NCBI GenBank assembly: GCA_028865615.1
Contig: JAGWJT010000002.1
Span: forward strand, 1 to 45,672
Reading direction: 5' to 3'
Length of the DNA stretch: 45,672 nucleotides
From: Patescibacteria group bacterium
Lineage (GTDB): Bacteria; Patescibacteriota; Minisyncoccia; Phycocordibacterales; PALSA-1337
Shown here: piece after piece, positions 4,420-44,213 of the stretch
Layout: each line of letters opens with the position of its first letter
How positions within the stretch are numbered: the stretch's first letter is position 1
Notes under the pieces: generated by a model
Seen by the model: the letters and a program-made list of their open reading frames with translations, nothing else
Databases searched by the model: none
Told to the model about the DNA's origin: nothing
Program-made: the position numbers and the translations under genes

Positions 4420-4429
4420 TATGGATATA

Positions 4430-4463
4430 ATGCGAATCTACGAATATATCCGAATCTACAAAT
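4430..4463 (-). repeat. two ATTCG-type motif units (reverse orientation)
   Basis: The reverse complement reads ATTTGTAGATTCGGAT and TATTCGTAGATTCGCAT. This is the same family as 34841, 38568, 42117, 44156 and 45038. Confidence 0.7.
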
Positions 4464-6035: not shown

Positions 6036-6042
6036 GGCCTCG

Positions 6043-6133
6043 CGGAGAATCGCATTTACATTCGTGCAAAGTGCTTTTGTGGCTATATTTTATGCGGTGT
6101 GACACGTTGCCCGAATGTACATGCGATTCTCCG
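6043..6133 (+). repeat. long hairpin element, family 2, copy A, directly after the uvrC stop
   Basis: Outer stem pairs 21 of 22 positions (6043-6064 with 6112-6133). An inner helix GCAAAGTG/CACGTTGC carries an A.G mismatch. Copies B (16280) and C (45642) share the inner part. Confidence 0.8.
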
Positions 6134-6145
6134 TGAAGCCCATTC

Positions 6146-7308: not shown

Positions 7309-7310
7309 GG

Positions 7311-7383
7311 TGGACCCGAGCGGTTTCGAACCGCTTGCCTCCGCTTTGCAAAAGCGGCGCTCTACCAATTGAGCTACGGGCCC
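7311..7383 (-). tRNA. tRNA-Ala (anticodon UGC)
   Basis: Folded by hand into a cloverleaf: acceptor GGGCCCG/CGGGTCC with G3:U70, anticodon loop TTTGCAA, T-loop TTCGAAA. CCA is not encoded. Confidence 0.9.
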
Positions 7384-7464
7384 ATTCTCTATGGTCCAAT
7401 CTGCTTGAACTACCGGCTTTCTAGTGATATCCACAGACTGTCCACGGAATGAGGATACACGACT

Positions 7465-7492
7465 TTGACGCTATATTCAATGATTGTATAAT
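7465..7492 (+). promoter_or_regulatory. sigma-70-like promoter for the Cys-rich mini-ORF
   Basis: TTGACG (7465-7470), 16-nt spacer, TATAAT (7487-7492). Confidence 0.55.
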
Positions 7493-7541
7493 TATCGCCT
7501 AGGTCGAGATTATCCGCCTAATCGACTAATTGATTACTATC

Positions 7542-7619
7542 ATGGCAGATGAACAGAAGTGCGAGTGCGGCCACGCCGCACACGATGGCAAATGCAGCCA
7601 GTGTGATTGCGAGAAGTAA
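7542..7619 (+). CDS. 25-aa Cys/His-rich peptide (MADEQKCECGHAAHDGKCSQCDCEK)
   Basis: ATG...TAA ORF too short for the ORF track. It has a near-consensus promoter 50 nt upstream and a strong terminator 20 nt downstream. It contains 5 Cys and 2 His in 25 residues. Confidence 0.45.
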   Translation: MADEQKCECGHAAHDGKCSQCDCEK

Positions 7620-7638
7620 ATATCTTCGTGCACGACGG

Positions 7639-7678
7639 AAAACCGCCTGATGCCGATCGGCAATGGGCGGTTTTCTAT
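7639..7678 (+). terminator. intrinsic terminator
   Basis: AAAACCGCC...GGCGGTTTT stem followed by TTTTCTATT. The loop contains the GCCGATCGGC palindrome. Confidence 0.7.
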
Positions 7679-7694
7679 TGCGGCTTTTTCTCGG

Positions 7695-7765
7695 TGGACC
7701 TACCGGGAGTCGAACCCGGGATTCGGCAATGCGAATGCCGCGTAATACCACTTTACTATAGGCCC
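7695..7765 (-). tRNA. tRNA-Ala (anticodon CGC)
   Basis: Acceptor GGGCCTA/TAGGTCC with G3:U70, anticodon loop TTCGCAT, T-loop TTCGACT. 71 nt. Confidence 0.88.
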
Positions 7766-7853
7766 TAGCGAGGAGCGAAATGAATATACCATATTCATTT
7801 CGTCCGAGCGACGGGCATATATAAGGAGCAAAGCGACGAATATAGGCCCATTC

Positions 7854-7969
7854 GCGGTACGCAGGAATGTTCGGTTGAGGGACCTTTCGAGCGCGGCTGG
7901 CGCTCGAACTGAACGATTTTCCAGCAGGAAAATCGTGTGTCCCGAAGCCGGAGCATTCCTGCGTACCGC
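7854..7969. repeat. structured palindromic element, family 3, copy 1
   Basis: Outer stem GCGGTACGCAGGAATG/CATTCCTGCGTACCGC encloses two hairpins (TTCGAGCGC-GGCTG-GCGCTCGAA and CGATTTTCC-AGCA-GGAAAATCG). The ~65-nt core is nearly identical to the reverse complement of 19651-19720. Confidence 0.85.
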
Positions 7970-7982
7970 CTATTTTTCAAAG

Positions 7983-8053
7983 TCGGGGTGCCGAGAATCG
8001 AACTCGGACCTCACGCACCCGAAGCGTGTATACTACCACTATACTACACCCCG
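7983..8053 (-). tRNA. tRNA-Pro (anticodon CGG)
   Basis: Acceptor CGGGGTG/CACCCCG, anticodon loop TTCGGGT, T-loop TTCGATT. Confidence 0.88.
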
Positions 8054-8105
8054 ATGAAGAGAAGATTAGCAGTTTTTGCCATTTCCGTCTATTCACGACT
8101 ATCTG

Positions 8106-8178
8106 TGGACCGTACCGGACTCGAACCGGTCACCTCACCCATGCCATGGGTGCGCTCTACCAGATGAGCTAACGGCCC
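8106..8178 (-). tRNA. tRNA-Ala (anticodon GGC)
   Basis: Acceptor GGGCCGT/ACGGTCC with G3:U70, anticodon loop ATGGCAT, T-loop TTCGAGT. Confidence 0.88.
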
Positions 8179-8208
8179 TTCTTCTGGTGCGGATAATCTA
8201 GCATGGAT

Positions 8209-8237
8209 TTGAGAAAATCTCAAAAATGTCGTAAACT
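8209..8237 (+). promoter_or_regulatory. promoter for the plus-strand tRNA-Pro/tRNA-Val pair
   Basis: TTGAGA (8209-8214), 17-nt spacer, TAAACT (8232-8237). The mature tRNA 5' end lies 10 nt downstream. Confidence 0.5.
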
Positions 8238-8246
8238 GCTTGCGAC

Positions 8247-8317
8247 CGGGCTGTAGTATAGTGGTAGTATACATCCATGGGGTGGATGCGGTCCGGGTTC
8301 GATTCCCGGCAGCCCGA
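8247..8317 (+). tRNA. tRNA-Pro (anticodon GGG)
   Basis: Acceptor CGGGCTG/CAGCCCG, anticodon loop ATGGGGT, T-loop TTCGATT. Confidence 0.88.
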
Positions 8318-8468
8318 ACGAAGTGAGGGATGCGAGCACGCGAAGCGTGCGAGAGGGAATCGAACGCCGCAGCGATGCCGAGCCAGCAGGCGAGGCCGCG
8401 AGGCGGTGCTCAGCCCGAGCCCGACTGGTCGGGCGAGAGGCGAGGGAGATTCCCGGCAGCCCGAACGA
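8301..8468 (+). repeat. 21-nt direct repeat (tRNA-Pro 3' end + ACGA) flanking a 126-nt GC-rich insert
   Basis: GATTCCCGGCAGCCCGAACGA occurs at 8301-8321 and again at 8448-8468. The second copy abuts tRNA-Val. The insert contains three short GC hairpins (8336-8350, about 8395-8407, 8420-8433). Confidence 0.85.
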
Positions 8469-8542
8469 GCACCCTTAGCTCAGTTGGCTAGAGCGCACCC
8501 TTCACACGGGTGAGGTCAGAGGTTCGAGCCCTCTAGGGTGCA
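8469..8542 (+). tRNA. tRNA-Val (anticodon CAC)
   Basis: Acceptor GCACCCT/AGGGTGC, anticodon loop TTCACAC, T-loop TTCGAGC. Confidence 0.88.
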
Positions 8543-8553
8543 CACGACGTTTT

Positions 8554-8662
8554 GGGAGCCATGCGGATATGCAATACATTCAAAACGAACAAGCAAAGTA
8601 ATCATCTGTCATAATCGTCTCGAATTTCGGCTTTGAATGTATTGCATATCCGCATGGCTCCC
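8554..8662. repeat. perfect 31-bp inverted repeat with 47-nt spacer
   Basis: GGGAGCCATGCGGATATGCAATACATTCAAA (8554-8584) is the exact reverse complement of 8632-8662. The spacer carries TGTCATAAT (8607-8615). The right arm contains the ATG at 8637. Confidence 0.9.
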
Positions 8663-10361: not shown

Positions 10362-10403
10362 GCCACTATCCGACAAAGAACTGATCATAACCATCGAACT
10401 CAT

Positions 10404-11516
10404 ATGTCATTATCTATCGGAATAGTCGGTCTGCCGAACGTGGGTAAATCCACGCTCTTTAATGCATTGACCAAAAAGTCGGTGCCGGCGGAGAACTATC
10501 CGTTCTGCACCATAGACCCGTCGGTCGGCGTCGTAGCAGTTCCGGATGAGCGTCTGGGCAAACTCTCGACATTTTCACGATCCGAAAAGACTGTGCCCGC
10601 GCCGGTTGAATTCACGGACATAGCCGGCCTGGTCAAAGGCGCCTCCGAAGGCGAGGGCCTGGGCAACCAATTCTTGCAACATATACGCGAGACGGACGCC
10701 ATAGCGGAGGTGGTGCGCATATTCGAGGACGAAAATGTCATACACGTAGACGGCCGCATCGATCCGGTAAAAGATATCGAGGTCATCAACCTGGAATTGG
10801 TTCTGGCCGATCTCCAGACCGTGACAAAGCGCATAGGCAATATCTCCAAGGAATTGAAAGCCGGCAAGAAAGATGCCATGATCGAGGCGAAGCTCTTGGA
10901 GCGATTGAAAGCCGCTCTGGAGGCGGGGAAGCCGGCCTCGACCGTGGTGGCCGACGAATTTGAAGCGCCGATGTTGAGACAGCTGTGCTTGATAACATCG
11001 AAGCCGATCCTTTACGTGCTCAACAAGAAAGCCGGCGCGAAGAACTTGGACGAACTGGCGGTCGGCGGCACACCCGATCCTCGCTGGGCAAAACTGATGG
11101 ATCTATTCAAATCAACCGGAGCAGGTCATGTCATCGTCGATGCGGGTATAGAGAACGAGCTCAAAGACTTGGACGCCGCGGACAAAGCGGAGATGCGCGA
11201 AGGTTTGGGTGCGCACGACGACGGCGTGAACGAGCTCATAAAGAAAGGCTATGAATCGCTCGGACTGATCACTTACTTCACGACCGGACAGGATGAGACG
11301 CGGGCATGGACTATCAAAAACGGCTGGACAGCACCTGAAGCGGGTACGGCCATACATACGGACTTCAAGGAAAAATTCGTGCGGGCGGAGGTCATAGGCT
11401 GGCGTGAACTCCTCGACGCCGGCTCATATTCCGCCGCCCGCGACCGCGGCCTGGTGCGCACGGAAGGCAAGGAGTACGTGGTCAAAGACGGGGATGTGGT
11501 GGAGTTTAAAATCTGA
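10404..11516 (+). CDS. ychF: ribosome-binding ATPase YchF
   Basis: G1 motif GLPNVGKSTLFNALT and a YchF-type C-terminal domain (AWTI..G..AP.AAG.IH.DF...F). 370 aa. Confidence 0.92.
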   Translation: MSLSIGIVGLPNVGKSTLFNALTKKSVPAENYPFCTIDPSVGVVAVPDERLGKLSTFSRSEKTVPAPVEFTDIAGLVKGASEGEGLGNQFLQHIRETDAIAEVVRIFEDENVIHVDGRIDPVKDIEVINLELVLADLQTVTKRIGNISKELKAGKKDAMIEAKLLERLKAALEAGKPASTVVADEFEAPMLRQLCLITSKPILYVLNKKAGAKNLDELAVGGTPDPRWAKLMDLFKSTGAGHVIVDAGIENELKDLDAADKAEMREGLGAHDDGVNELIKKGYESLGLITYFTTGQDETRAWTIKNGWTAPEAGTAIHTDFKEKFVRAEVIGWRELLDAGSYSAARDRGLVRTEGKEYVVKDGDVVEFKI

Positions 11517-11559
11517 AATGGCAGGCCGGCACGGCGAAACATACACATCCATCAAAATC

Positions 11560-11624
11560 GAGGGTGTCGAAAAAAGTTGGAATCTGGCTAAAAATAAGGG
11601 ATTCCAGGATTTTTCGACACCCTC
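11560..11624. repeat. palindromic intergenic element, family 1, copy 1
   Basis: 25-nt arms GAGGGTGTCGAAAAAAGTTGGAATC / GATTCCAGGATTTTTCGACACCCTC around a 15-nt loop. A near-identical copy in the opposite orientation is at 40617-40684. Confidence 0.85.
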
Positions 11625-16279: not shown

Positions 16280-16381
16280 GCCCCGCAAGGAATGCATACA
16301 GCGTATGTGCAAAGTGCAATATGGTAGCATCGTGTCCGTTGGTACACGTTGCGCATGCGCTGTGTGCATTCCTTGCGGGGC
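16280..16381 (+). repeat. long hairpin element, family 2, copy B, directly after a stop codon
   Basis: 24-bp outer stem with 23 Watson-Crick pairs and 1 G.U. It has the same inner helix GCAAAGTG/CACGTTGC with the same A.G mismatch as copy A. Confidence 0.8.
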
Positions 16382-19218: not shown

Positions 19219-20499
19219 ATGAAAAGACAACCTGCAAAAACCGGGACATCTCATACAAAAATCATAGTCGGCATGTCGGGCGGGGTGGATAGCTCGGTTT
19301 CCGCGGCTCTATTGAAGCGCGCCGGATACGACGTGACGGGCGCTTTCATCAAGGTCTGGCAACCAGATTGGATAGAGTGCAATTGGCGCGAGGAGCGGCT
19401 GGATGCCATGCGAGCGGCGGCACACCTCGGCATTCCATTCATGACTGTCGACTTGGAGCAAGAATACAAGCGCGGCGTCATAGACTACATGATAGCCGAA
19501 TATCGCGCCGGCCGGACGCCGAACCCGGATGTGATGTGCAACAGGGAAGTCAAGTTCGGAGCGTTCTGGAAGTGGGCGGAAGCACAAGGCGCGAATTTCA
19601 TCGCCACAGGGCATTATGCACAGATCATTTCGCTTCAAGGAAACATGGGTTCAGGGGCACGCGATTTTCCTGCTGGAAAATCACTCAGTTTCGGCGCCAG
19701 TCGCGCCGAAAAGTCCCCTTCACCCATGTTTCCTTTCAGCTCACGATATTCGTTGCTGACAAGCGCCGATGACAACAAAGACCAGACTTACTTCCTGTGG
19801 ACATTGAACCAAGACGACCTATCGCACGCGCTTTTCCCCATAGGCGGCATGACCAAGCCGGATGTGCGCAAACTGGCCAAGAAGTTAGGGCTGCCGAATG
19901 CCGACAAGAGAGACAGCCAAGGACTTTGCTTCATAGGCAAAGTGGATGTGAAGGAATTTTTGCGTCATTACATAGGAGATGATCCTGCGGCCGGGCCCGG
20001 AAACGTATTGGATGACAAAGACGAGGTCGTAGGTTCTCACAACGGTTCGCTGTTCTTCACTATGGGAGAACGGCATGGATTTGCTATAGATCGGACACAC
20101 AAAACACCGGACGACTCTCCGTTTTATGTTATCGGCAAAGACACAGCCGCCAATACCATAACCGTTTCCAATAAAAGAGGCTCAGCATCGCCCGGTGCCG
20201 TCAAGGAAGCAACATTGTCTAATGTCAATTGGATATCGCGGATTCCAAAAGATGGCGAAAAATTGATGGCTCGCGCCCGTTACAGAGCAGGGCTGTGTCC
20301 GGGCCACATTTTACTACCGTCGGCAGAATTAGAACCAAAATCAGAACGGTCTGCCGGTCAAGGTACGTCATGCGGAACGACCACATTCGAATTCGAAAGA
20401 TCTCAAGAAGCCATAACACCAGGCCAATCATTAGTCATATACAGCCAAGACGGCGCTGAATGCCTGGGGGGCGGGATCATAGATAAATATAAGATTTAA
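19219..20499 (+). CDS. mnmA: tRNA 2-thiouridine(34) synthase MnmA with a 33-codon insertion
   Basis: PP-loop VGMSGGVDSS, ATGHYA, NKDQTYFLW and CFIG. It is interrupted in frame by the repeat at 19637-19735. Confidence 0.92.
   Translation: MKRQPAKTGTSHTKIIVGMSGGVDSSVSAALLKRAGYDVTGAFIKVWQPDWIECNWREERLDAMRAAAHLGIPFMTVDLEQEYKRGVIDYMIAEYRAGRTPNPDVMCNREVKFGAFWKWAEAQGANFIATGHYAQIISLQGNMGSGARDFPAGKSLSFGASRAEKSPSPMFPFSSRYSLLTSADDNKDQTYFLWTLNQDDLSHALFPIGGMTKPDVRKLAKKLGLPNADKRDSQGLCFIGKVDVKEFLRHYIGDDPAAGPGNVLDDKDEVVGSHNGSLFFTMGERHGFAIDRTHKTPDDSPFYVIGKDTAANTITVSNKRGSASPGAVKEATLSNVNWISRIPKDGEKLMARARYRAGLCPGHILLPSAELEPKSERSAGQGTSCGTTTFEFERSQEAITPGQSLVIYSQDGAECLGGGIIDKYKI
19637..19735. repeat. structured palindromic element, family 3, copy 2, inside mnmA
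   Basis: 14-bp perfect outer stem AAGGAAACATGGGT/ACCCATGTTTCCTT encloses the same two hairpins as 7854-7969. It is 99 nt with no stop in the mnmA frame. Confidence 0.85.
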
Positions 20500-40616: not shown

Positions 40617-40684
40617 CCCGGGGTGTCGAAAAAACTTGGAATCCCTTATTTTCAGCCACATTCCAACTTTTTTCGACACCCCCG
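40617..40684. repeat. palindromic intergenic element, family 1, copy 2
   Basis: CCGGGGGTGTCGAAAAAACTTGGAATC...CATTCCAACTTTTTTCGACACCCCCGG. It is inverted relative to copy 1 at 11560-11624. Confidence 0.85.
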
Positions 40685-40795
40685 GATTTGATGAGATGTG
40701 TGAGATGTGTCTGTGTTTCCCTAACAAAAACAGCGCCGACTTGCGTCAGCGCCGTTGGGGAAACGACCGAGGGTCTTACGAAAGGATTTGGACAA

Positions 40796-42116: not shown

Positions 42117-42151
42117 ATTCGTAGCATTCGCATGAATTTGTAGATTCGTAT
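42117..42151 (+). repeat. two ATTCG-type motif units upstream of dnaJ
   Basis: ATTCGTAGCATTCGCAT (42117-42133) and ATTTGTAGATTCGTAT (42136-42151). Confidence 0.75.
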
Positions 42152-42158
42152 TACTTCT

Positions 42159-43139
42159 ATGAAAGACTACTACAAAACTCTTGGCATCGATAAAACCGCC
42201 TCGAAAGACGACGTCAAAAAGGCGTTCAGGAAATTGGCGCACCAGTATCATCCCGACAAGAATAAAGGTAACAAGGACGCAGAGGCCAAGTTCAAGGAAG
42301 CCAGCGAGGCATATTCCGTGCTAGGCGACGATAACAAACGCAAGCAATATGATATGTTCGGTTCGGCCGGACCAGGTGGGGCGGGCTTCAATCAGGGTGC
42401 CGGCGGCTTCAATGCCGGTGGCTTCCAGGGCGGTTTCGGCGGTGCCGGCAACTTCGGCGGCTTTGACTTCTCACAATTTACCCGCGGCGGCCAAGGCGGC
42501 TTCCACTTCAGCCAGGGCGGCATGGAATTCGATCTTGGCGACATATTCGGGGAATTCTTCGGCGGAAGCAGGGGAGGCGCAAGGCGCGTCAGGAAGGGCA
42601 GGAATATCACCGTGGACGTCGAGCTTTCATTCAAGGACTCGATATTCGGCGTGGAGAAAGAGATCAATGTCGGGGGCAAGAGGCTGGCCGTCACGATACC
42701 TCCGGGCATAGAGAGCGGGCAGGGATTGAGAGTGGCGGGCAAGGGCGAACCTGCGCCTGACGATAATGATGCTAAGGATAGTGTGCCGGGAGACCTGATC
42801 GTGCGCATTTGGGTCGCAGAGCATCCAAATATCCGCAAGGAGGGATTCAATCTGGTCATGGAGCTCGACATCAAACTCACGACTGCCTTGGCCGGAGGCA
42901 CGATCGATCTGGATACATTGGACGGCAAGATAGAGCTCAAGATCCCCGCAGGCACCAGCCACGGCGAGATATTGCGCTTGCGCGGCAAGGGTGTGCCTTA
43001 TGAGACTCGCGGCATATTCACCGGCAAAGCCCACGACAAGCGCGGAGACTTGCTCATTGTGACCCATGTGGCTATGCCCAAGAAGCTGTCTAGGAAAGCC
43101 CGGGAGCTCATAGACGAGCTCGGCAAAGAGGGGCTGTAA
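42159..43139 (+). CDS. dnaJ: J-domain co-chaperone, class B/CbpA-like (no zinc-finger domain)
   Basis: J domain with HPD (QYHPDKN), a long G/F-rich linker and C-terminal substrate-binding domains. The protein contains no Cys at all. Confidence 0.88.
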
Positions 43140-44155: not shown

Positions 44156-44213
44156 ATTCGTAGATTCGGATAAATTCGTAGATTCGTATTGTATCTATTC
44201 GTAGCATTCGCAT
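44156..44213 (+). repeat. three ATTCG-type motif units (six ATTCG pentamers) upstream of scpA
   Basis: ATTCGTAGATTCGGAT, ATTCGTAGATTCGTAT and ATTCGTAGCATTCGCAT. Confidence 0.8.

Follow-up and report, generated by a model that had tools for sequence, protein, structure and literature searches.

A palindromic hairpin repeat of Patescibacteria found between genes and in frame within mnmA and other genes

Introduction

Why should an intact mnmA gene carry a long palindrome inside its reading frame, and where does that palindrome come from? The question is raised by a 45,672-nt stretch of Patescibacteria DNA (the window), in which a 99-nt palindromic element lies within mnmA. An earlier note on this DNA read the element as a selfish palindromic repeat tolerated in frame, as in Rickettsia. 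Comparison with related DNA loci (L numbers) and MnmA proteins (P numbers) agreed with that reading: the element is multi-copy, lineage-specific and covarying, and it occurs in frame in unrelated genes. We consider it probable (about 0.78) that it is a dispersed non-coding hairpin repeat of Paceibacteria-type candidate phyla radiation (CPR) bacteria, selfish and similar in kind to the Rickettsia palindromic elements (RPEs), and that its copy in mnmA is translated, not spliced.

Results

The mnmA insert folds as a three-way junction

Covariance model R1 was built from four seed copies, and R2 is a broader model; fold z-scores are relative to dinucleotide shuffles. The host gene, the parts of the element and a second copy are located in the window as follows.

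19219-20499, plus strand: mnmA coding sequence, intact, 426 aa, identified by its open reading frame (ORF), the Pfam tRNA_Me_trans HUP, M and C domains, and Foldseek matches to 2hma and 2der
19637-19735, plus strand: palindromic element, 99 nt, core forward, codons (residues) 140-173; 115 bits with R1 and 95 bits with R2
19637-19650, plus strand: 5' arm of the outer stem, AAGGAAACATGGGT, perfect complement of 19722-19735, copy-specific in sequence
19651-19660, plus strand: internal loop TCA, then GGGGC as 5' half of the inner stem, then junction AC; the TTC(A/G)-stem motif recurs in many copies
19661-19684, plus strand: hairpin 1, GCGATTTTCC-TGCT-GGAAAATCAC, 9 of 10 positions paired, with the family-conserved loop CTGCT(G)
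19689-19711, plus strand: hairpin 2, TTTCGGCGC-CAGTC-GCGCCGAAA, perfect, helix 5 of the family alignment, with the family-conserved apex GCGCC-AGT-CGCGC
19713-19721, plus strand: GTCCCC as 3' half of the inner stem, followed by internal loop TTC, assigned from the fold
19722-19735, plus strand: 3' arm of the outer stem, ACCCATGTTTCCTT, pairing perfectly with 19637-19650 over 14 bp
7854-7969, minus strand: second copy, between tRNA-Ala(cgc) and tRNA-Pro(cgg); 98 bits with the covariance model

Read along 19637-19735, the order is AAGGAAACATGGGT-TCA-GGGGC-AC-(GCGATTTTCC TGCT GGAAAATCAC)-TCAG-(TTTCGGCGC CAGTC GCGCCGAAA)-A-GTCCCC-TTC-ACCCATGTTTCCTT. The earlier note had described a perfect 14-bp inverted repeat at the ends, two inner hairpins and a stop-free 99 nt in the mnmA frame, and all of these were recovered. 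The arms at 19637-19650 and 19722-19735 are fully complementary, hairpin 1 pairs at 9 of 10 positions and hairpin 2 throughout, and the ORF places the insert at codons 140-173. By our estimate, a 14-bp complementary pair within 100 nt is expected by chance about 0.02 times in 45.7 kb. RNA folding of 19632-19740 gave one dominant three-way junction consisting of the 14-bp outer stem, the inner stem and the two hairpins (-59.3 kcal/mol, z = -9.3); none of 200 shuffles was as stable.

The note had also likened the core to the reverse complement of an intergenic element at 7854-7969. Analysis of this second copy revealed the same three-way-junction fold on the minus strand (z = -10.7) and 85% identity between the two cores. 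Hairpin 2 differs between them by compensatory changes (CGG/CCG versus GAG/CUC), and the outer stem of the second copy, GCGGTACGCAGGAATG with its complement, is perfect over 16 bp and unrelated in sequence to the stem of the mnmA copy. The second copy lies in a tRNA cluster at 7309-8543 with six genes: one for Val, two for Pro and three for Ala isoacceptors. Relative L201 has this cluster too (1741-2719), with an element in the same Ala(cgc)/Pro(cgg) gap whose arms have diverged yet remain paired. The two window cores are closer to each other (85%) than to the same-position copies in relatives (66-78%), which suggests that sequence may be exchanged between copies within a genome.

The element belongs to a large family with a conserved core and copy-specific stems

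Contigs from Joint Genome Institute (JGI) metagenomes were scanned once with a 20-base degenerate core pattern, and at least 120 stretches matched. The same pattern gave no match in 2.9 million viral contigs, so the metagenome matches are not due to chance. R1 confirmed at least 124 metagenome copies (82 + 42). Taking the covariance model and the metagenome scan together, at least 129 copies of about 95-160 nt were confirmed in all, with strongly negative fold z-scores; further copies found by the covariance model include L003:509-612 (intergenic) and L038:9809-9901. Several contigs carry 2-4 copies, with up to 4 per 13 kb and three within 560 nt in L153. In 1.38 Mb of other CPR loci, the covariance models found few members of the narrow family.

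Copies share a conserved core of about 55 nt, ACGGATATTTTTCTGCTGAAAAATTCCTCGTGCTCGCGCCAGTCGCGCTCGCAAG, which makes the double hairpin. Around it stands a closing stem of 5-43 bp (median 19) that is nearly always perfect and has a different sequence in each copy. Outside an inner stem of 4-7 bp, a small internal loop, TTC(A/G)...TC(A/G), is present in many copies. When the four seed copies were compared, compensatory changes, on both sides of the pair, were seen at 22 of 37 pairs. Among 81 distinct copies, 90.1% of cells are paired compared with 64.3% after shuffling, changes on both sides occur in 35 of the 37 pairs, and the covariation score is 0.597 compared with 0.14 for shuffles and 0.08-0.12 for slid controls. 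The earlier note had proposed building a covariance model and would have given up its reading had there been neither further copies nor structural covariation; both were found in abundance. Hairpin 1 (helix 4 of the family alignment) is paired in 98.5% of cells. The difference between core and arms was assessed by per-pair counts, since indels distort ungapped identity, which was not used. The commonest pair occurs in 24-37 of the 81 copies at positions of the outer helices, compared with 62-80 of the 81 at most core-hairpin pairs. Thus, the pairing of what the note called a terminal inverted repeat is real, but this repeat is a stem peculiar to each copy; it is the core, and not a transposon end common to the family, that is conserved.

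Two variants of this anatomy were observed. A few copies have a third hairpin between hairpins 1 and 2; in L085:7845-7975, L101:5436-5565, L114:12258-12388 and L179:2874-3006 this extra hairpin is GC-rich (GCCCCCC..CACCTCGYGGTGAGGGGC), a pattern suggestive of nested insertion or growth by modules. The outermost repeat, TTGAATTACGAAAC, is conserved in one subfamily and also flanks unrelated cores. The inverted repeat TTGAATTAC(G/A)AAAC encloses cores unrelated to the family in L113:3744-3850, L122:6528-6634 and L188:11635-11771, and from these sequences it appears to behave as a common shell for different inner modules.

Copies lie between genes and in frame within them

The gene context of the copies was read from crude gene calls. 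Among the matches listed, most copies are intergenic and about 10% lie in frame inside genes. The intergenic copies between co-directional genes have the core forward in 38 cases and reverse in 19, and convergent flanks (15) outnumber divergent ones (6), again among the matches listed. The following in-gene copies were identified.

IF-2 (infB), between domain 2 and the IF-2 domain: one copy, opposite strand, in frame
ArgRS (argS), DALR domain: one copy, in frame
Dus (dus): one copy, in frame
Class-V aminotransferase (Aminotran_5, cysteine desulfurase): one copy, in frame
Two PMT_2 membrane glycosyltransferases: copies in frame
Wzy_C/TPR protein: one copy, in frame
Another MnmA, junction of the M and C domains: one copy, in frame
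Canonical mnmA site: copies in the window, L001, L003 and L204, in frame

These copies fall in loops or inter-domain linkers of housekeeping proteins, some of them between Pfam domains, and they are always in frame. Besides the canonical mnmA site there are 8 such gene sites, which are stop-free too. Read from the consensus, five of the six frames run open through the canonical core, as do all six where CTGCTGG forms the loop; the frame used differs among host genes. A composite query of six translated core frames against a protein word index returned 90 candidates, of which one was a weak match. In one MnmA gene (L180:4900-6180) there are repeat-derived inserts at two places: a family copy at the M/C junction and, at the canonical site, a different palindrome.

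Stem pairing is symmetric at the level of DNA

We consider it unlikely that the copies function as a structured RNA, for example as a terminator, a stability element, a small RNA scaffold or a site for RNase III, and are present in coding regions as well. The very strong covariation and the conserved loop and junction bases would suit such an RNA, as would the preference for gaps after genes, the 2:1 forward-strand bias in co-directional gaps and the presence of other long hairpins in post-gene gaps of the window. However, pairs in the long arms comprised 2415 Watson-Crick, 17 G:T, 34 A:C and 31 other combinations. Selected RNA helices normally tolerate wobble, and here G:U is nearly absent. 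Because G:T is as rare as A:C, which is the wobble pair of the opposite strand, the palindrome looks like one kept symmetric as DNA and not like a helix selected in a one-strand RNA. These counts point to a pairing constraint on DNA, or equally on both strands, rather than on RNA. Two further features speak against an RNA: both orientations are used, even at one gene site, and copies lie in frame within unrelated ORFs. A search of the window against Rfam 15 returned nothing at the gathering score, and the two elements gave only chance-level microRNA matches (E of at least 0.1, searched to E 10), so that no Rfam family matches even at that level. A hammerhead was considered and rejected, as the junctions, read by eye, do not fit its core motifs.

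Symmetric pairing at the DNA level would also be expected if the core were a cellular DNA signal (a protein-binding, uptake, replication or recombination site) spread by its usefulness, with the in-gene copies as by-products. The conservation of the core in many genomes, with arms constrained to pair only, fits this explanation, as does the exchange within a genome suggested by the likeness of the two window cores. Against it, copy number and positions vary among close relatives, and the rarity of the narrow family in other CPR loci fits a lineage-restricted parasite better. We know of no cognate protein for the core. On balance, a cellular signal seems decidedly unlikely.

Filled, empty and flipped alleles occur at the mnmA site

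The closest MnmA relatives of the window are all Patescibacteria or Paceibacteria. Among 120 relatives, the linker from GHYA to KDQSYF has 13 aa in many and about 50-52 aa, in several peptide families, in roughly twenty; the length classes in orthologues are 13, 17, 21 and about 51 aa. At the DNA level, 83 loci were compared. The plain form has 45 nt, and 27 loci have linkers of 93-219 nt; a length of exactly 159 nt is found in the window, L001, L003 and four Saccharibacteria. Many long linkers fold as long palindromes (z from -5 to -10), and palindromic inserts occur at this site in many CPR lineages, with the core in both orientations. The earlier note had proposed aligning MnmA orthologues and named a homologous segment in distant bacteria as grounds for abandoning its reading. 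The insert proved lineage-specific and is absent from the MnmA of Escherichia coli and Streptococcus pneumoniae.

The element found in the window is also present in P0018 (L001) and P0071 (L003). The P0018 peptide is partly frame-shifted relative to that of the window while the pairs compensate, so that conservation is seen in the nucleic-acid fold and not in the protein sequence. Within one MnmA clade, the core is forward in P0050 (L204; R1 E = 8e-6) and reversed in P0099 (L011) and P0044 (L205). The cores of L011 and L205 can be aligned to that of L204 only when reverse-complemented (z = 5.2 and 7.8, compared with 0.7 and 2.1 in the forward direction), and the P0028 peptide equals the reverse-frame peptide of the window's own family. 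R2 did not detect the more diverged or reversed mnmA inserts of L011, L205 and L008, whose link to the family is by pairwise alignment and common loop motifs. These sequences leave little room for an ordinary lineage-specific expansion of a protein loop with incidental palindromy, which we regard as next to negligible. Length variation of the linker from ATGHY to KDQSYF in many orthologues is what such an expansion would produce. However, the same DNA is also found in non-coding gaps, the peptide changes wholly with frame or orientation while the DNA fold is kept (P0018 compared with the window, L011 with L204), and the linker z-scores are not expected of coding sequence.

An empty site was identified in a close relative: L003 has a 114-nt insert and L126 the plain 45-nt linker. 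The two loci form a mosaic of tracts that are 100% and about 78% identical; the flanks of the site are otherwise 100% identical, and the site itself falls within a short tract of divergence. Over L003:340-4250 the tracts alternate every few hundred bases; the loci come from different metagenomes, and the mosaic reflects either frequent homologous recombination or chimeric assembly. With the same caveat of chimeric assembly, the insert can come or go with a recombined mnmA allele.

In Saccharibacteria, the linker at this mnmA site in L047 (about 10388-10546), L048, L054 and L075 likewise measures 159 nt, and the insert in it forms hairpins from another sequence; these inserts were matched by neither R1 nor R2.

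The insert is predicted to extend a surface loop of MnmA

MnmA of the window is complete, with the HUP, PRC-barrel and C-terminal barrel domains all found by Pfam. The alignment columns that hold its PP-loop motif and its two catalytic cysteines are invariant. In the comparison with solved MnmA structures, residues 7-137 of the query correspond to residues 4-136 of the chain, and 179-423 to 145-365. The gap between these blocks has 41 residues in the query and 8 in the crystal proteins, a net gain of 33, which bears out the view of the earlier note that the spacing is normal once the element is removed. In an AlphaFold2 model (mean predicted local distance difference test score, pLDDT, 80.3), residues 141-173 have pLDDT below 50 and sit between the strands at 135-139 and 176-180. 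Apart from the insert, the modelled fold superposes on the MnmA crystals 2hma and 2der with target-normalised TM-scores of 0.87-0.89 (Foldseek). The note had proposed structure prediction as a check for a surface loop, and that is how the insert was modelled: as a predicted disordered extension of a beta-hairpin tip in the catalytic domain.

A second lineage-specific insert of low confidence, LPSAELEPKSERSAGQGTSCG, was observed near the C-terminal barrel (residues 372-384, window about 20332-20370); it is partly present in a few orthologues.

The long mnmA inserts are disciplined in frame. All 27 linkers of at least 90 nt are stop-free multiples of three, which is contrary to the alternative left in the earlier note, that the element is removed at the RNA level. 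Splicing or bypass would not need such discipline, so the insert is probably translated. Removal or skipping by a small intron, by RNase excision and religation or by ribosomal bypass, giving an MnmA without the loop, is scarcely credible to us. In its favor are the compact and very stable fold in the mRNA and the precedent of yeast mitochondria, where ribosomes bypass mobile hairpin elements. If frame were irrelevant, we estimate a chance of about 0.05 per insert of being in frame and stop-free, as all 27 are here, together with those at the 8 other gene sites. Furthermore, no intron or ribozyme match to the elements was found in Rfam. The insert would instead stay in the mRNA and be translated as a disordered surface loop of about 33 residues that MnmA tolerates; most likely this loop is harmless.

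Evidence on mobility

The arms of the copies were compared with their 250-nt flanks. An origin of the arms as inverted copies of the target, or as guides to it, was rejected, as the longest words shared with the flanks match a control made with the arms of other copies. Direct repeats at the ends showed an excess of 2-bp repeats and a few of 4-6 bp (TATTCT, ACTCGC, TTCA) over control, many of them artefacts of palindromic boundaries.

Several points weigh against a selfish, mobile and translated repeat. The direct-repeat comparison with control gave no clear target-site duplication around the copies. There is no family-wide terminal repeat; a common TTGAATTACGAAAC is restricted to one subfamily. 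No recurrent transposase-like gene was found among 479 ORFs adjoining copies, whose clusters are housekeeping orthologue groups. For these reasons, mobility is read from the distribution of the copies only. Stems are still paired in apparent positional orthologues, both the mnmA copies and the tRNA-cluster copies, which is unlike a decaying selfish insert unless correction or selection acts. The conserved core and the 2:1 orientation bias would fit a function too. Conservation of the core is in part forced, since the search pattern fixed 20 core positions; positions that the pattern left free are conserved equally, and copies found independently of the pattern behave alike. Metagenome contigs may be chimeric. 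No RAYT (repetitive extragenic palindromic (REP)-associated tyrosine transposase) or Y1 transposase was found near the copies; a genome-wide search was not made. From these sequences, the element appears to be non-autonomous.

Other repeats in the window

Long hairpins occupy many intergenic gaps in the window. Those at 6036-6140 and 16280-16381 are near-perfect and share a motif close to the apex, GTGCAAAGTG ... CACGTTGC, on unrelated stems; a second family with a conserved apex and copy-specific stems is thus probable in this genome. A hairpin with 31-bp perfect arms lies directly after tRNA-Val (8554-8662), and a further palindromic element is present twice, in post-gene gaps at 11550-11622 and 40617-40693, the two copies being 90% complementary over 73 nt. 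The 14-mer ATTCGTAGCATTCG has six exact copies, all on the plus strand (34841, 38568, 42117, 44197, 45038 and 45061), compared with 0.09 expected. All of them are in intergenic gaps of the last 11 kb, often beside variants of ATTCGTAGATTCG, and related copies lie at 4421-4463, 42126-42160 and 44164-44198. By its sequence and placement this 14-mer looks like a common promoter or operator motif.

Discussion

The closest parallel in kind is with the RPEs, which are hairpin repeats of about 100-150 bp present in many copies per reduced genome (Ogata et al. 2000, via PMC10969869). RPEs occur between genes and in frame in unrelated housekeeping genes, with an extra peptide that fits the protein fold (PMC10969869). 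The CPR family resembles the RPEs as described there: it is a hairpin repeat of about 95-160 nt with at least 129 copies, intergenic and in frame in unrelated genes, at sites compatible with the fold. The host is a member of the Patescibacteria and not of the Alphaproteobacteria. Unlike RPEs, the CPR family has a conserved central double-hairpin core, copy-specific stems and both orientations at one gene site. For RPE families, the description is of a conserved encoded peptide, whereas the CPR peptide varies with frame and orientation. The relation, with RPEs compared by their description, is therefore one of kind and not of membership; membership by descent is unlikely, the host being a Patescibacteria bacterium.

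Prokaryotic transposable elements of the miniature inverted-repeat kind (MITEs) that fuse in frame have been reviewed, including ERIC, Correia, the Coxiella QMITE and Anabaena MITEs (PMC10969869). Like MITEs, the CPR elements are small, non-coding, multi-copy, palindromic and sometimes intragenic, and one subfamily has the conserved outer repeat TTGAATTACGAAAC and a few possible target duplications of 6-7 bp. Unlike in MITEs, terminal repeats are not conserved across the family, as the commonest-pair counts for the outer helices (24-37 of 81) indicate. To our knowledge there is also no parent insertion sequence for the CPR family.

Other systems share parts of the architecture. The double-hairpin elements (DHE) of Allomyces have two adjacent hairpins and occur between genes and in variable parts of genes. 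Hairpin-forming repeats (RHE) are found in sponge mitochondrial genomes (PMC2800124). DHE and RHE are, like the CPR elements, short mobile units with two adjacent hairpins, but they are organellar and have no long copy-specific closing stem. Structure-dependent recognition of hairpins, as in the REP/BIME (bacterial interspersed mosaic element)-RAYT and IS200/IS605 systems, would explain pairing without sequence conservation as well as the strand bias; however, REPs are shorter and extragenic with a conserved tetranucleotide, and the CPR elements are longer and partly intragenic with a two-hairpin core. The inverted terminal repeat of adeno-associated virus (AAV) is T-shaped, with a long stem and two small hairpins, and exists in flip and flop orientations. 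The likeness is one of architecture only, a three-way junction in two orientations; the AAV repeat, whose stem sequence is conserved, serves as the replication origin at the ends of a viral genome, and nothing in the CPR family indicates rolling-hairpin replication. An integron attC site was rejected, as the stem bases (AGGAAAC...GTTTCCT, ACGAAAC...GTTTCGT) are, by eye, unlike RYYYAAC...GTTRRRY and no integrase lies nearby. In the full text searched, with subscription journals outside its coverage, the literature contained no description of such elements in CPR/Patescibacteria, and this large CPR repeat family is apparently undescribed so far.

Flipped cores, the empty site and the mutually similar window cores together fit old insertions that have been flipped, exchanged among alleles and copies, and kept symmetric in place. 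Pairing of the stem could be kept by selection for structure-dependent transposition, by hairpin-templated correction (template switching in quasi-palindromes), or by both. Recombination between the two arms would flip the core, and homologous recombination of mnmA alleles would spread or remove the insert. It is also conceivable, though rather unlikely, that the family represents a new class of structure-defined DNA module, with a conserved core and a self-complementary drifting stem, which flips and whose cores are exchanged within the genome. Such a module might be handled by a hairpin-specific enzyme (an HUH- or tyrosine-type recombinase, or a repair pathway) or serve the cell as a DNA signal, and it would be a general source of new protein loops across the CPR.

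On the preferred reading of a selfish, translated repeat, the in-frame selfish palindromes treated as peculiar to Rickettsia and a few other bacteria have an abundant and architecturally distinct counterpart in the CPR. The repeat offers one explanation for some of the length variation in the CPR proteins examined, and for annotators it means that such low-complexity loops derive from repeats. Helices that covary strongly without being RNA call for caution in the discovery of RNA motifs in metagenomes. The filled, empty and flipped mnmA alleles are natural material on how palindromes stay symmetric. Taken together, the data suggest that reduced genomes of very different ancestry seem to tolerate palindromic invaders in essential genes.

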